From Escherichia coli (GTDB taxonomy: Bacteria; Pseudomonadota; Gammaproteobacteria; Enterobacterales; Enterobacteriaceae): a DNA stretch of 64,000 nt. This document shows positions 4,372 to 41,480 of this stretch, piece by piece. The stretch lies in NCBI RefSeq assembly GCF_003790525.1, contig NZ_CP033635.1; one strand, 5' to 3'. Numbering within the stretch: the stretch's first letter is position 1; the number at the start of each line of letters is the position of its first letter. Both the position numbers and the translations under genes were made by a program. Under the pieces are notes generated by a model. That model was given only the letters and a program-made list of their open reading frames with translations, was not told where the DNA came from and searched no databases.

Positions 4372-5298
4372 CTACAGCGCCCGCCAGCACCGGATCTCAC
4401 GTCCGTCCTCCCTTATTGTTAATGATTGCCGGACTTCACACCCGTGGGTTGCCAGAGGGCAACGTTCGCAGAAAAAACAGCCTTGTGGCAACGTGCGGTT
4501 TCCTGGTAGATCCGTTTTACGTAATGCCCATTCTTCCTCCAGCGGTTTATCAATGGCGGGGAGGGAATCCAGCAATAATCGGGTGTATGGATGTGCCGGA
4601 GCTGTCAGCACCTGTTGCGCGTCTCCTAATTCCACAATCTGTCCGAGATACATCACCGCCACCCGATCGCTCATATGACGTATCACGGAGACATTGTGTG
4701 AAATCAGCACATAAGTCAGCTCGCGATTTTCCTGTAGCGTTACCAGTAAATTGAGGATCTGCGCCTGCACGGAGATATCCAGCGCCGAGGTTGGTTCATC
4801 AAGCACAATCACGTCAGGCTGCGAAGAGAGTGCTCTGGCAATGGCGATACGTTGCCGCTGCCCGCCTGAGAACGCATGAGGCAAGCGATCGAGATACTCC
4901 GGACGAATACCCACCTGCACAGCCAGCTCCTCTGCCAACGCTCGCCGCTGTTGTTCACTACTACGCTTAGCAATCCAGAGCGGTTCCGTGATGATGCGCC
5001 ACACCGGTAAGCGCGGATTAAGCGAAGAGAGCGGGTCCTGAAACACCATCTGCATAATGCGTTGTGATCCTGAACGGATGTACTGCCCGTGGCTCGGTTG
5101 CAGCATACCCATTAAAAGCTGTGCGAGGGTGCTTTTGCCGCAGCCTGACTCACCGACGATCCCTAAGGTTTCACCACGACGGATCTGTAAATCAATACCA
5201 TTGATGGCATGAACATGTTCCGTAGTTTTACCAAGCCAGTTTTTTCGGGCAGGGAAATTGATATGGACGTCGCGTAACGTTAATAACGTATCAGACAC
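4372..5298 (-). CDS. ddpF: D,D-dipeptide ABC transporter ATP-binding protein DdpF
   Basis: ORF 4372..5352 trimmed to GTG at 5296-5298 (308 aa, overlaps the ddpD stop by 8 nt); Walker A GESGCGKST, ABC signature FSGGQRQR, Walker B VIVLDEPTS. Confidence 0.85.
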   Translation of the reverse strand: MSDTLLTLRDVHINFPARKNWLGKTTEHVHAINGIDLQIRRGETLGIVGESGCGKSTLAQLLMGMLQPSHGQYIRSGSQRIMQMVFQDPLSSLNPRLPVWRIITEPLWIAKRSSEQQRRALAEELAVQVGIRPEYLDRLPHAFSGGQRQRIAIARALSSQPDVIVLDEPTSALDISVQAQILNLLVTLQENRELTYVLISHNVSVIRHMSDRVAVMYLGQIVELGDAQQVLTAPAHPYTRLLLDSLPAIDKPLEEEWALRKTDLPGNRTLPQGCFFCERCPLATHGCEVRQSLTIREDGREIRCWRAL

Positions 5299-6277
5299 TA
5301 ATGACCTCCTGCTGCGGATACCAACAGGCGCAGCGGTGGTTGTTGTCACCACACGCTGTCAGCGCCGGGACGTTTTCACACTGTGTACCTGCCGCATAGC
5401 AACGATCGCGAAAAGCGCAGCCGTCAGGCAAATGGGTGAGGTTTGGTACCGTCCCCGGAATAGCGGGTAATGGCTGGCGCGGTATTCCATGTTCCGGTGC
5501 GCATTGCAGCAAACCAATGGTATACGGATGCCGGGGATGATGGATAACGTCTGCCGTCACGCCGCTCTCAATCACGCTTCCGGCATACATCACGTAAACG
5601 CTATCGCACAGTTGCGACACCACGGCCATATCATGGCTGATGAACAGTACCGCAGTTCCACTGGCGCGGGCTTTATGTTTAAGCAGACGCAGTACCTGCA
5701 ACTGTACCGTGACGTCCAGCGCCGTAGTCGGTTCGTCGGCAATAATCAATTGCGGCTCGCAGGAGAATGCCAGCGCAATCATTACCCGCTGGCGCATACC
5801 ACCTGAAAGCTCAAACGGATAGCGCGACATAACTTCCACGGCATCCGGGATTTGCATCTCTTCCAGCAGGGCAATCGCTTTAGCTCTGGCTTCCCGACGA
5901 CTTATTGGTTGATGATGGCGGATCACGTCCATCATCTGAAGACCTATTCGACGTGTCGGATTGAGGGCGGTCATCGGTTCCTGAAAGATCATCGCCACTC
6001 GTGCGCCGCGCCACTGACGAAGCTGCTTTTCCCGAGCGTTAAGAACATCTTCTCCCAGCAGTGAAATATGTCCCCGATGTACGCAATAACTGCCCGTCGG
6101 TAGCAGACGCATAATCAACATTGCAGTGACTGATTTACCCGAGCCGGATTCTCCCACCAGACCGACAATTTCACCGCGGTTGATTTTCAATGACACATTG
6201 TTGAGCGCGTGAACGTCGCCGTTAAAACCGGGGAAACTCAAATGCAGTTGTTGAATGTCCAGAACGGGTTGAGTCAT
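5291..6277 (-). CDS. ddpD: D,D-dipeptide ABC transporter ATP-binding protein DdpD
   Basis: 328-aa ORF; Walker A GESGSGKS, signature LSGGMRQR; overlaps ddpC by 4 nt (translational coupling). Confidence 0.92.
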   Translation of the reverse strand: MTQPVLDIQQLHLSFPGFNGDVHALNNVSLKINRGEIVGLVGESGSGKSVTAMLIMRLLPTGSYCVHRGHISLLGEDVLNAREKQLRQWRGARVAMIFQEPMTALNPTRRIGLQMMDVIRHHQPISRREARAKAIALLEEMQIPDAVEVMSRYPFELSGGMRQRVMIALAFSCEPQLIIADEPTTALDVTVQLQVLRLLKHKARASGTAVLFISHDMAVVSQLCDSVYVMYAGSVIESGVTADVIHHPRHPYTIGLLQCAPEHGIPRQPLPAIPGTVPNLTHLPDGCAFRDRCYAAGTQCENVPALTACGDNNHRCACWYPQQEVISV

Positions 6278-7170
6278 GACTGCTTTCCTCCTGCTTTCGG
6301 GTCAAGCAGATCGCGAATACCATCGCCAAAGAGATTAAACCCGACGGCGGTAAGCAAAATCGCTGCCCCCGGAAATGCGCAATACCACCATTGATCGAGC
6401 ACATAGTTGCGACCATTCGCCACCATCGCCCCCCATTCAGCACTCGGTTGTTGAGCACCAAGGCCAATAAATCCCAACGTGGCGGCCATTAAAATCGCGC
6501 TACCGATATCCAGCGATGCCTGCACAATCAGCGGCGGCAGGGAGTTACGTAAAATATGCCAGTTGATCAGATGCCAACGCGACGCACCAAAGGTTTTCGC
6601 CGCCTGAACATAGGTATACTGGCGAACAACTAATGTTTGCCCCCGCGCCAGGCGCACATAAAAGGGAATTCGTACAATAGCAATCGCCAGCATGGCGTTA
6701 AACAAACTCGGCCCGAGAGCGGCTGCCAGTGCCATTGTCAGTACCAGCGAAGGAATCGACAGCATAATGTCCATGATGCGCATGATAATCGCGTCTGCGC
6801 GTCCGCCAAGCACACCGGATAGACACCCGAGTAGCGACCCCATCATACCTGCAATGGCGACCACCACTAATCCGGCGAGAATTGATTGCTGACTGCCGAC
6901 CAGTACGCGGCTGAACAGATCGCGTCCCACTTCATCGGTGCCAAACCAGTGCGCCGCAGAAGGCGGCAAAAGGCGGGCGGTTAAATCAATGGCGTTGGGA
7001 TCATGCGTCGCCAGCCACGGTGAAAAAATCATCATCAATAGCATTAATACAATGATGACTGCGCCGGTCACGGTGAGCGGGCTGCCTTTCAGCATCCATA
7101 CCAGTTTTGCACCGTTAAATCGCGTTTGTTTTGGTGGGCGCACGGCTGACGTTTCCTCGCTTAGCATCAT
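6274..7170 (-). CDS. ddpC: D,D-dipeptide ABC transporter permease DdpC
   Basis: 298-aa ORF, polytopic hydrophobic protein of the DppC/OppC permease family; 4-nt overlap with ddpB. Confidence 0.92.
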   Translation of the reverse strand: MMLSEETSAVRPPKQTRFNGAKLVWMLKGSPLTVTGAVIIVLMLLMMIFSPWLATHDPNAIDLTARLLPPSAAHWFGTDEVGRDLFSRVLVGSQQSILAGLVVVAIAGMMGSLLGCLSGVLGGRADAIIMRIMDIMLSIPSLVLTMALAAALGPSLFNAMLAIAIVRIPFYVRLARGQTLVVRQYTYVQAAKTFGASRWHLINWHILRNSLPPLIVQASLDIGSAILMAATLGFIGLGAQQPSAEWGAMVANGRNYVLDQWWYCAFPGAAILLTAVGFNLFGDGIRDLLDPKAGGKQS

Positions 7171-34095: not shown

Positions 34096-35010
34096 TTATT
34101 CATAGATAAAAGTGACACCAATGACTGACTGGACGGTTCCGGCTGCAACCTTGTTTCCTGTTTGTCCATAGGTTGCGCTTAAACCCAGAGGTACTTTGCT
34201 TTTATTTACTGTCCCCAGGGAGACGTTTTCTCCCGTAGCCAGTATTTTTCCATTACGCATCAGAGAGACACCCACTCCCGATGCTTTTGTTGCATCTGGT
34301 GCTGTGTTAGCAAACACTTGTCTGGCACTGTCAGTGGTAGCACCCGAAAGATAAAATGAGAGCTTTTGTTCACTTGAGCAATATACGCCAAGGGGGATTT
34401 CTGCGCTTCCAGGAAAGTCCGGGAGATTCACATTGACATTACGACTATCAACGGTGCAGCCGCCTGTTGGCATAACAACACTGTTATTTGAAATAATATT
34501 CCACGTAAAATTACGCGGATTTCCGCTTCCTAACGTGGCAATTTTATACATATGAATACGGGCAATAACTTCCCCGGCTTTTATGACAACTCCACCGGCC
34601 GCACCGACTGGGGTAATATAGAGTTTTAACGGTAATGGCATCGGTGTCTTATCACCAATATCTAATACATTAGTATTTGTCGTCAACGGGAAGGGGTAGG
34701 TCACATTATTCCAGTACAGCGATCCTTTATATGACTGTAGAGAGCCTGCGAAAGCTGATCCTTGTACCAGGTTTATATGATCAGTGTCGTACCAGCCGCC
34801 GTAATCATTCCAGCAACTTATATGCTGAGACAAGTCTACAACCAGATTCTGGCCCGGTTGTATTACAGGGTCGAGATTAACATAAACAGAGGTTGTACCT
34901 GCTCCAATACTTGACCCGCCATCGACATTACAACTGAAGGCAAAAACTTTGCCTGCCATTAATAGAAGATAAATACCGAACAGAAGCTTCATACTTATTG
35001 TTTTACCCAT
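34096..35010 (-). CDS. ydeQ: FimH-like two-domain fimbrial tip adhesin (F9/Fml-type), YdeQ
   Basis: 304-aa ORF with signal peptide; strongly FimH-like by recalled motifs ([24 protein letters not shown] ... NLVVDLS ... [13 protein letters not shown] ... C-terminal VIGVTFIYE donor-strand-complemented pilin domain). Confidence 0.9.
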
Positions 35011-35069
35011 GATATATCCTAAGATTAAAAAATTGATTTAAAAAGGAGGCTAAGAAAATCGAATCGACG

Positions 35070-35573
35070 TTATTGCCAGGTGTAGATCACATTGATTAGC
35101 GCCTCGATCGTTCCCTGGCTTGCGTTTCCATTCACCGTGATAGCTCTTGCCTTAAGTGGAAACTGTGCATTACGAGTGATCTCATCAACAATAACCGTTT
35201 TGCTATCACCATTTTTTAACGTCGCATCCTGGTCATCCCTTAGCTCTATCTGAATATTTTCGGCAGTACCTTCATTTTTGTAATAACCCGTATTGTCAGT
35301 TGAACCTGTCACGATTGCCGTCACTGCACTTGTTTCAACCGGACAATCGGTTAATGACAAAGTAATATTGTGCCAGCCTGATGCAGAACCAGGTTGTTGC
35401 AGATTGCGCGTATAAAGATCCCCGAGATTAACGTTAGCTTCTTTGGTTTGAATAGTGCAGGGTTTAGCGACTACCCGACCAATAACAGTGATAGTGACAT
35501 CGGCGGCCTGGAGAGTTGCTGTGAATAACGCGCAAAACGTAGCTAACAGGAACCTCTTGTGAAGTCTTTTCAT
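35070..35573 (-). CDS. ydeR: Fimbrial minor subunit (FimG-like), YdeR
   Basis: 167-aa ORF with signal peptide and pilin-like C-terminus; position between adhesin and ydeS as in type 1 pili. Confidence 0.85.
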   Translation of the reverse strand: MKRLHKRFLLATFCALFTATLQAADVTITVIGRVVAKPCTIQTKEANVNLGDLYTRNLQQPGSASGWHNITLSLTDCPVETSAVTAIVTGSTDNTGYYKNEGTAENIQIELRDDQDATLKNGDSKTVIVDEITRNAQFPLKARAITVNGNASQGTIEALINVIYTWQ

Positions 35574-38822: not shown

Positions 38823-39542
38823 TTACTGCATGGTTGCCTTAATACGCGGAGTTAATGCACCGTAATCATTGATCGTCTGAAAACTGATATCCCCGGTTGC
38901 AGCATGCGGGATATCCACCGATACTTCACCTTTTGGCGGCACCATGGTGTTTGGGAGATTGCTATTTCCTGCTTTCATATTTGTTACGGTAATGAAGTAG
39001 GGCGTTGGATTAATAAGAGTGAGTTTGCTACCGCTGCGACGAAACCGAAGCATTGCTGGCGCTTCTTCAGGTGCCATTGCCAGGTTCGTCGGGCGATAAA
39101 ACATTTTTATGCGGCTAATAATTGCCAGCTGTAATGTATTCTCATTCTTCTGGTCTTTTTCCATAGCAGGAATAGCTTTAACATTAACCCAAAACAGGCT
39201 TTCACGGTCGCCTGGTAACTGATGATTAGTGGCGTTGATTATCCGAAGCGTATTCTCTTTTTTACCTTGCATGGAAAAAAGCGGTGGGGTAATGACAAAC
39301 TGGGTGTCTTTTTGGTCACCTGCATTTTCTATCCATGACTGAATGAGATAGACACTGGCAGGATCATTATTCGTGACAGGCAATAAAACCTGTTTCTGGT
39401 TTGCCGGATAAATTACCCGCGTCGCACCAAGTGCGACAGCTGCGTTGGCAATGGTGCTATGGCAAGCAAAGAGCAATAAAAGTAACACTGTCGCCATAAA
39501 GGAAATAGAGTAGGGGATACGCGTAGTTTGCATCTGATGCAT
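38823..39542 (-). CDS. Periplasmic fimbrial chaperone (FimC/PapD family)
   Basis: 239-aa ORF; FimC-like core (GATRVIYPANQKQ ... TNNDPASVYLIQSWIEN ... ENTLQLAIISRIKMFYRP ... LTLINPTPYFITVT). Start among the first three in-frame ATGs is uncertain. Confidence 0.85.
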   Translation of the reverse strand: MHQMQTTRIPYSISFMATVLLLLLFACHSTIANAAVALGATRVIYPANQKQVLLPVTNNDPASVYLIQSWIENAGDQKDTQFVITPPLFSMQGKKENTLRIINATNHQLPGDRESLFWVNVKAIPAMEKDQKNENTLQLAIISRIKMFYRPTNLAMAPEEAPAMLRFRRSGSKLTLINPTPYFITVTNMKAGNSNLPNTMVPPKGEVSVDIPHAATGDISFQTINDYGALTPRIKATMQ

Positions 39543-39895
39543 TCTCCATGTGTTAAGAGGATAAGCGGGAAAACCGTTACATCAGACAATCAGTAAATGT
39601 TGCTAATACATTGGCGACTCGCCGGGTTTCCAGACTTAATGCGTTTGTAATAAATGTTGGTTCTCTTTTAATAGGAAAACCTTGCTACAAAGTAAATATT
39701 TTAAATAACAGTAAGTTTAACTACTGTTGTTTATTGATCGTTTAGATATTATGTGATTTTTTCATACCGCTCCAAAACACAAACTATTCCTCATTAATAA
39801 TGAGATGAGCATTGGTGAATTGCTCGGGTGTGCGTAGCCATGCCACACACACCCTGTTTCAATTTCAGATGACGTATAGCCACCTTAAGATTGAA

Positions 39896-40459
39896 TTATA
39901 GATATTGAACTTTGAACGTCGCATCAGCGTTTGCAGTACCAGCTACTGACTGCCCGAGAGCAATATAACGAGCCTGGAATGGCAGTATATTCGTGCCATC
40001 AATCAAGTCGGTTTTAGCGCTAAAAGTGGCACCATCAAGTATTAATACCTCCCCCGTACGGTCCAAAATTTGAATACCGACATTTTGGGCAGAGCCTGCC
40101 GCTGAACTCTGCAGCGCTAAGGTATCGTCATTACTGGTGACAGTAGTACCCAGGAATGCAACAGCTGCATTACTGGAAACATTGGTATCACAATCATTCA
40201 GCTTGATATTGAAGCCAACGGCGGAGCTGAGGTCACCTGCTTTAGCCAGGCGAGAAGAACGGACCTGACCCAGCTCAACCGTTTGGTTCATTGATTCTGA
40301 ATCAATCGCACAAGCGGCATTTACCACTTCACCTTTAAAATGAATAACACCGCCATTAACAGTGGTCGTTACTGATTCATCACCCTCGGCTGCGCTTACC
40401 GCAGCAGACGACATCGCCAACACAGAAACGACAATCATACCGACATGTTTGAGTTTCAT
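39896..40459 (-). CDS. Major fimbrial subunit (FimA-like, F9/Fml-type)
   Basis: ORF 39896..40507 trimmed to ATG at 40457-40459 ([23 protein letters not shown] signal peptide, 187 aa) preceded by a GGAGA RBS; pilin Cys pair and C-terminal donor-strand motif ATFKVQYL. Confidence 0.8.
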
Positions 40460-40892
40460 AATTCTCCAAAATTTATATTTAAGTAGCTGAATAAAGAAAG
40501 TTAACAATCAAGTCATTCTGTTATTGCTTATAAAACAAGAATCATTCTTGATGGGATATTGCCCTGAGAATATAGTTTCCAGGGTTATTACATTTCACGA
40601 AGAACGATAATATCTTTAAATTACAAGGACACCTAATCACAACAAGTTTATTGCAGCACTTGTTGTAGAGAGTATTTGCAAAGACATTTTATGTCGCTAA
40701 ATAACATGACGATTTCATTATGCATGTTATTTATAAACCGTGACTAAACAGAATATTATTGCGGACAAGGGAAGTGTCAGGAAAGGTCAAGAGCGACCAA
40801 TGGTTTATATGGCTATAAATAATTAGCTATAGTTAATGTTTGCCTGGTGTAACTAACACGGAATTGCTCTAAACAGATAAGTGCACGGTTTA

Positions 40893-41147
40893 TTAAAGCT
40901 GACCGACAGACTTTCTTAACCTGGTAATATCTCTCTTAGGTGACTCTCCAAACATCCGCGAATATTCCCGACAGAAATGGGATAAGCTTTCGTAACCGAC
41001 AGCATAGGCTGCAGTGGTGACATCGTAATGTTCATTCAGCATCAGTCGCCTGGCTTCATTGAGGCGTAGCCATTTCTGATACCGGAGTGGACTCATTCCC
41101 GCAAGCTGTCTGAAGTGTTGATGGAAAGAGGGGGTGTTCATTTGCAC
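40893..41147 (-). pseudogene. yneL: AraC-family regulator remnant (C-terminal HTH domain only)
   Basis: 84-codon ORF (GTG start in the ORF track) that is AraC-type HTH only (MSPLRYQKWLRLNEARRLML ... GYESLSHFCREYSRMFGESPKR); an in-frame TGA lies 8 codons upstream, so the ligand-binding N-terminal domain is absent. Confidence 0.6.
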
Positions 41148-41480
41148 GCGGTTTGCCAGCCTGACTCTTCAACGCAGGGAAGATGCGGCAAACGGCAAAC
41201 CTGCATACCAGCCAGGCACAGGCCAATCATGAAAGAGGAGAGGCTTTATGTTCTGGAGCCCTGAAGTAATAACGACGACCGGAAAATCGCTTCGCATCAC
41301 TCAAATTCAATTTAACATAATATACATTATGCGCACCAACATAACCCAAGGGAGAATCCAGTCGTTGGCGGTCATGATGTCCTGCTCATTAACAACGACC
41401 AAAACCCCATATCTTACTTAATACCGTATTCTCGGCTTAACCGGTCGTGCAACCTCAACACATTGGTTTCAACTACATCT

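Follow-up and report, generated by a model that had tools for sequence, protein, structure and literature searches.

The yneL remnant upstream of the f9 fimbrial operon of Escherichia coli SMS-3-5 is very probably the non-functional tail of a YqhC-like AraC-family regulator gene

The window analyzed here, a stretch of 64,000 nucleotides (64 kb), comes from E. coli SMS-3-5. On its minus strand, at 40893-41147, the ORF list gives an open reading frame (ORF) of 84 codons with a GTG start, in agreement with the first-pass annotation of this DNA. The sequence related to intact regulator genes is slightly longer and occupies 40893..41160 (minus strand). It represents the 3' end of an AraC_N/HTH regulator gene, namely residues L217 to the end of a 304-aa protein, stop codon included, and the GTG codon corresponds to V220 of the intact relative. 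In the PGAP annotation, 40893-41159 is the pseudogene ECSMS35_RS26630, a helix-turn-helix transcriptional regulator labeled as incomplete and missing its N-terminus. The syntenic counterpart in K-12 is yneL (b1506), which is also a pseudogene by annotation, and both the position between the f9/ydeT genes and hipA and the sequence identity assign the remnant to yneL. The pseudogene status of yneL in K-12 and in the window genome is already known and ordinary.

The 91-residue translation of this frame matches the Pfam profile HTH_18 with an E value of 2.1e-23 and 82.9 bits (curated cut-off, 33.6 bits), which is far beyond chance and bears out the proposed relationship to the DNA-binding domains of AraC/XylS regulators. 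Only one HTH_AraC unit, the second helix-turn-helix, is matched in this translation. Upstream of the GTG codon, the in-frame translation reads ...SSLR-stop-RVRLANRVQMNTPSF..., with seven sense codons preceded by a TGA at 41169-41171. This upstream sequence (RVRLANRVQ) had been read as a protein-like continuation of the regulator. The seven codons and the TGA are indeed present, but the homology to the regulator is limited to LANR, while the RVR codons and the in-frame TGA are supplied by the antisense strand of a 54-nt relic of a hydrolase gene.

Downstream of the remnant and co-directional with it, a consensus scan identified the promoter of the f9 (ydeQRST-type) fimbrial operon at 40746-40717 (minus strand, TAGTCA-18-CATAAT). 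Its -35 box is located 147 nt downstream of the 84-codon ORF, which therefore lies upstream of the fimbrial operon as the first-pass annotation had stated. The promoter in the window matches the one mapped by 5'-RACE in CFT073, where transcription starts 251 nt upstream of the start codon of the major-subunit gene (Wurpel et al. 2014, PMC3966885). At ~34500-35573 of the window, a transposase gene of the IS3 family lies directly against the minor-subunit gene ydeR, which is truncated (PGAP), so that the f9 operon is disrupted, and SMS-3-5 is listed among the strains with a disrupted f9 operon (PMC3966885). The consensus scan found no promoter-like site upstream of the remnant on the minus strand, and no Shine-Dalgarno-like motif was seen before the GTG or the following ATG. 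No terminator was found in 40500-41700 by a terminator scan and no Rfam match in 39500-42500. A 2022 survey of uncharacterised transcription factors describes K-12 YneL as annotated pseudogene, restricted to E. coli and giving regulated microarray signals (PMC9308461), and because of these signals, the sole hint of transcription, the region may be transcribed.

On the other side of the remnant, the last ~61 nt of hipA are found at 41414..41474 (minus strand). Compared with K-12, 1610 bp are missing here (blastn; L010 6916-8525), comprising all of hipB and all of hipA except these last ~61 nt. The first-pass annotation had placed the regulator at the edge of a hipBA scar. This deletion junction (41474|41475) is real and lies ~300 nt away, but the truncation of the regulator is unrelated to it, because strains with all or part of hipA have the same regulator junction. 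SMS-3-5 shares exactly that junction with ETEC6333, an O157-like strain and four other strains; among them, some possess hipA in whole or in part and others a carboxymuconolactone-decarboxylase cluster instead. Beyond the hipA remnant, an autotransporter gene of the yneO/ECSE_1600 family (41658-46538, minus strand) lacks 480 bp of its 3' β-barrel part in comparison with K-12 and the O157-like strain, and is labeled by PGAP as missing its C-terminus.

When the intact 304-aa regulator was used as tblastn query, only residues ~217-303 were recovered from the 64-kb window, and residues 1-208 had no match anywhere in it. The N-terminal domain has thus been lost, as originally proposed. The breakpoint between regulator and hydrolase sequence is 41160|41161. 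Fused directly to it, on the plus strand at 41161..41215, is a relic of an alpha/beta-hydrolase gene representing codons ~226-243 of a 365-aa protein. This relic is 93-94% identical to L006 4354-4301 and L009 11761-11809 by blastn, and tblastn matches aa 226-243 with an E value of 6e-5. At the two breakpoints, regulator and hydrolase share an imperfect similarity of ~23 nt, but the junction is 5-6 nt outside it, so that no claim is made for microhomology as the origin of the fusion. Further along the plus strand, at 41229..41274, blastn and sequence comparison revealed the ribosome-binding site and the first 9 codons of a DUF2255 gene, 89% identical to L006 3753-3710 and to E. vonholyi (L016) 1809-1766; the 9 codons alone give a tblastn E value of 0.55, which is not significant. 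The relic keeps its ribosome-binding site AGGAGAGG and its ATG, which opens a chimeric ORF of 57 codons (41248-41421, plus strand) in which homology was not found past codon 9.

The far edge of this regulator/hydrolase/DUF2255 module is formed by a palindrome-containing element of 27-33 nt at 41310..41342 (strand not assigned). The element, ATTTAACATAATATACATTATGCGCAC..., has matches of 97-100% over 27-33 nt at the edge of the module in Klebsiella and Enterobacter, and it also matches 148 plasmid records from many genera, in which its surroundings are unannotated. Breaks of variable cassettes fall on or near it (at 41316 in ETEC6333 and at 41301 in ST131), and it may be a recombination or boundary site. 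In ETEC6333 (L003 3831-6831) and at L019 and L021, the same element starts a cluster that stands in place of hipBA and comprises genes for a carboxymuconolactone decarboxylase, a quinol monooxygenase, an aldo/keto reductase and an NAD(P)H oxidoreductase.

The order and orientation of the relics in the window are those of the complete genes in E. vonholyi and Klebsiella. The module of E. vonholyi consists of the regulator (4814-5722), the hydrolase (3380-2364), DUF2255 (1791-1423) and the palindromic element (414-441). Because residues 1-208 are not found in the window by tblastn and the relics of the neighboring genes are collinear, the regulator gene was shortened by deletion and not by a frameshift.

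The first protein search with the remnant returned short fragments only, and full-length relatives were reached through the DNA context. For a 128-aa fragment present in four Klebsiella assemblies, the frame can be followed upstream through frameshifts to yield a protein of ~303 aa, with AraC_N (PF06719, E value 5e-42) followed by HTH_18 (Pfam); the remnant has no AraC_N domain. Since their positions differ among the assemblies, these frameshifts are taken for assembly errors. A blastn search with the Klebsiella region located an intact copy of the regulator gene in 85 of 5426 E. coli genomes. The copy of strain M18 (WP_000622442.1, 304 aa) resides on an island beside tRNA-Arg (argW) and intS, next to an alpha/beta hydrolase gene and a divergent, partial gene for an iron-containing alcohol dehydrogenase, which we take to belong to the same product family as yqhD. 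Intact genes of 303 aa are also present in Enterobacter sp. MGH 24 and E. vonholyi, and the regulator gene of Enterobacter hormaechei likewise lies divergent to genes for DUF2255 and a flavodoxin-like NAD(P)H oxidoreductase, the module ending at the palindromic element. An 82-aa 'protein' from Enterobacter turned out to be the tail of a frameshifted full-length regulator gene. In E. vonholyi, the last 33 regulator codons occur a second time as an isolated copy (L016 7570-7668), 1.8 kb downstream of the intact gene, which makes a further small relic of this gene family.

The intact regulator shares 31% identity over 255 aa with E. coli YqhC (E value 6e-39). It reaches the cut-off of no NCBIfam equivalog; its top NCBIfam matches (RhaS, FtrA, AndR and RclR) all score far under their cut-offs, and among the matches listed we recognize no fimbrial regulator. 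The remnant is 91% identical to residues 217-303 of WP_000622442.1 (BLASTP), and in blastn searches it matches L009 8732-9000 with 90% and Klebsiella with 86% identity. The amino acid identity and the collinear relics of the neighboring genes show that it descends from a gene of the AraC_N (PF06719)/YqhC type.

The first-pass annotation had expected a dedicated fimbrial regulator at this position. The genomic context points elsewhere: intact relatives are divergent from genes for an alpha/beta hydrolase, an iron-containing alcohol dehydrogenase, DUF2255 and a flavodoxin-like oxidoreductase, and two such neighbors have left relics next to the remnant in the window. As these relics derive from a hydrolase gene, a DUF2255 gene and the boundary element, yneL does not appear to be a fimbrial regulator, and the remnant does not qualify as one of the Rns/CfaD/AggR kind. 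Judged by sequence, its ancestral partners would be hydrolase/oxidoreductase genes and not the F9 fimbriae, and the remnant probably has no role in F9 fimbrial control.

The truncation is old and shared among strains, and the decay is still progressing. At least 80% of the region 40880-41280 is kept in 1190 of the 5426 E. coli genomes, 1147 (about 21%) show no match to the remnant region, and in about 78% the remnant is further truncated or absent. Genomes of the K-12 type match up to 41102 only, with a replacement of ~110 bp and a 1-bp deletion that causes a frameshift. In this allele, 41103-41212 is replaced by an unrelated segment of ~120 bp containing the inverted repeat GTGTCTGTCGCATAGACAC (L010 ~6540-6660). 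ST131 has unrelated DNA in place of the whole of 40858-41300, and no defects are annotated in its genes for the f9 major subunit, chaperone and usher. In some E. coli, a further deletion has generated a chimeric ORF of 120 aa. The allele of SMS-3-5 is the longest surviving form of the pseudogene. Independent truncations of the same gene were found in Klebsiella, at M223 (ATCC 13883, with a TTG-initiated ORF of 82 codons) and at W241.

A 32-nt pattern specific for the junction had no match in the genome contigs scanned. A broader pattern of 29 nt matched only four loci in these contigs, none of them labeled E. coli: two intact Enterobacter genes, the truncated copy of K. pneumoniae ATCC 13883 and a contig of a contaminated metagenome-assembled genome (MAG). 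As the broader pattern also gave no E. coli contig, we infer that the representative E. coli genome among the scanned contigs lacks the remnant. The MAG contig, JARKOR010000214.1 (25 kb, assigned to Candidatus Nanosynbacter), is 92% identical to E. coli f9-yneL over 1.5 kb and has the K-12-type yneL allele, and the match is almost certainly due to contamination of the bin with E. coli DNA.

To assess selection, dN/dS was computed over the 88 codons shared by the sequences. The value for the intact genes of M18 and Klebsiella is 0.11, while the two remnant alleles that diverge most from each other give 0.34-0.40, resting on 11-12 differences only. The seven long-form E. coli alleles aligned (SMS-3-5 and six others), in all of which the 84-codon frame is still open, display 13 nonsynonymous and 5 synonymous variants. 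For this small sample, the 13:5 ratio has a probability of P = 1e-4 under the constraint of the intact genes (dN/dS 0.11) and of P = 0.39 under neutrality. Six variants (H231Q, Q244R, R248S, A252V, L255T and M256I) affect residues that are invariant in the family alignment. With these variant counts and its erosion or absence in ~78% of the genomes, the remnant does not behave like a functional gene under selection. The substitutions look close to neutral and, together with the distribution among strains, indicate what is probably neutral decay.

The extent of the remaining DNA-binding domain was determined by comparison with the intact 304-aa relatives, to which BLASTP homology begins at L217. 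An AlphaFold model of the intact relative places helices at 192-206, 214-220, 225-236, 240-258, 263-269, 275-286 and 290-303; with a block-mean pLDDT of 60-88 (moderate) in the DNA-binding domain and below 50 for residues 1-181, the model was used solely for the helix positions in the DNA-binding domain. Solved AraC-type DNA-binding domains (PDB) align from residue ~196-201 of the intact relative, and residues 11-106 of MarA align to its residues 197-292, of which the remnant covers the equivalent of MarA ~31-106. According to the predicted helix positions, the remnant would lack helix 1 and half of helix 2, or nearly all of helix 2 if the GTG start is used; the second HTH and recognition helix 3 are kept intact. 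With helix 1 gone and little of helix 2 left, the remnant is not a complete DNA-binding domain and falls short of the seven-helix, two-HTH module of about 100 aa. The earlier description of the ORF as essentially a C-terminal double HTH does not fit either the single matched HTH_AraC unit or the start of homology at L217. To our knowledge, active isolated DNA-binding domains of the AraC family (MarA, SoxS and C-terminal constructs of AraC, MelR and XylS) all contain the seven helices.

Taken together, our results make it very probable that the 84-codon ORF belongs to the yneL pseudogene of E. coli, left over from an AraC-family regulator of the YqhC-like kind; most likely, the remnant has no function. 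The ancestor was a protein of ~304 aa in which an AraC_N sensing domain preceded a DNA-binding domain of seven helices and two HTH motifs, and its gene was transcribed divergently from a small set of hydrolase/oxidoreductase genes. One or more deletions removed regulator codons 1-216, the divergent promoter region and most of the neighboring genes, leaving a collinear string of regulator tail, 54 nt of hydrolase gene, DUF2255 start and boundary element. In the simplest reading, the module once measured at least 5 kb, and several deletions brought it down to about 0.45 kb. The 84-codon ORF would neither be made in a meaningful amount nor fold into a DNA-binding module, and the remnant would persist only because deletion has yet to take it away.

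The first-pass annotation had raised the idea that the remnant, if still expressed, could act as a constitutive or dominant-negative DNA binder. We consider such a stand-alone HTH mini-regulator, possibly acting on the F9 promoter, very unlikely. Although the ORF is open and runs towards the f9 promoter in the same direction from 147 nt upstream, with the second HTH and recognition helix 3 intact, it is missing helix 1 and the larger part of helix 2, whereas all seven helices are present in the active isolated domains known to us. Neutral-looking substitutions strike its invariant residues, neither a promoter-like site nor a Shine-Dalgarno sequence was found, and the ancestral context is that of hydrolase/oxidoreductase genes and not of fimbriae. 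It is eroded or absent in about 78% of the genomes, including ST131 with its f9 genes annotated free of defects, and in the window strain itself the f9 operon is disrupted by the IS3-family element. K-12 yneL does give a microarray signal (PMC9308461), but f9 is under temperature-dependent control by H-NS, with direct repression that is relieved at 20 °C, and its variable 5' flank contains 'three hypothetical transcriptional regulators' with no evidence tying them to f9 control (PMC3966885).

It is likewise improbable, to a high degree, that the DNA rather than a product is kept because it serves the f9 promoter in cis, for example as an upstream region for H-NS nucleation or bending. Every independent erosion has started at the distal end and spared the 3' ~200 bp beside f9, and H-NS binds the f9 promoter region (PMC3966885). 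However, ST131/B2 strains have replaced everything beyond 40857, the whole remnant included, and their f9 genes are still annotated without defects; moreover, the fragment tested for H-NS was the 251-bp region, which lies downstream of the remnant (PMC3966885). The chance is slighter again that the 84-aa product, or the 120-aa chimeric form, is made as a micro-protein that interferes with YqhC-type paralogues (e.g., the argW-island copy) or modulates f9. If true, a gene fragment would here have been recruited for another purpose.

A simple frameshift or nonsense pseudogene whose N-terminal domain survives upstream in a different frame has next to no probability: an in-frame stop does lie immediately upstream, and tblastn nominally extends across it to residue 209, but residues 1-208 are unmatched in the 64-kb window, the sequence immediately before the remnant matches an internal part of the hydrolase gene on the opposite strand with 93-94% identity, and the extension to residue 209 reflects a chance or micro-homology likeness of the hydrolase antisense strand to the regulator. 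A complete frameshifted N-terminal domain, named by the first-pass annotation as a finding that would overturn its reading, was thus looked for by tblastn across the whole window and is refuted.

There is hardly any likelihood either for the short form being the ancestral state, i.e., a small AraC-type gene like those for MarA and SoxS from which the long forms arose by secondary fusions: short ORFs (82-84 aa) are seen repeatedly, in E. coli as well as in K. pneumoniae ATCC 13883, but the breakpoints differ (L217, M223, G232/M233 and W241) and lie inside helices, the remnant corresponds to MarA ~31-106 only and not to 11-106, relics of neighboring genes flank the E. coli breakpoint, the Enterobacter 82-aa 'protein' belongs to a frameshifted full-length gene, and the intact genes, at a dN/dS of 0.11, are under purifying selection. 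Both the collinear gene relics and the differences in breakpoint refute this possibility, which had also been named beforehand as one that would count against the first reading; intact versions of 303-304 aa exist at 86-90% nucleotide identity.

With yneL read as a decayed regulator gene, the locus is a textbook case of a gene decaying where the E. coli chromosome is variable and prone to deletions, and it matters little in itself. What the present analysis adds is the origin of yneL from a YqhC-like regulator whose neighbors survive as fragments of 27-55 nt in their original order. This may keep yneL off lists of uncharacterised transcription factors and out of proposals for F9 fimbrial regulators.

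Among known systems, K-12 yneL (b1506) is the same locus and the same gene tail, with 96% identity over the shared 210 nt. The SMS-3-5 allele differs from it in having ~58 nt more of the regulator (41103-41160), the original hydrolase junction and no internal frameshift. The intact AraC_N + HTH_18 regulators of E. coli, Enterobacter and Klebsiella share their last 87-88 codons with the remnant (91% identity at the amino acid and 86-90% at the nucleotide level), and their neighbors (alpha/beta hydrolase, DUF2255 and boundary element) are those found as relics in the window. In contrast to these proteins of 303-304 aa with a sensing domain and the full seven-helix DNA-binding domain, the window keeps L217 to the end only. 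Stand-alone proteins such as MarA and SoxS resemble the remnant in being small and having no ligand domain; compared with the MarA module, the remnant starts only at 217 or 220 and is short of the first ~20-23 residues, with helix 1 and the greater part of helix 2 among them. YqhC, the activator of the aldehyde reductase genes yqhD and dkgA, has the architecture of AraC_N and two HTH motifs in common with the intact relative, of which it is a distant paralogue and not an orthologue, whereas the copy in the window has neither sensing domain nor target genes nor operator region.
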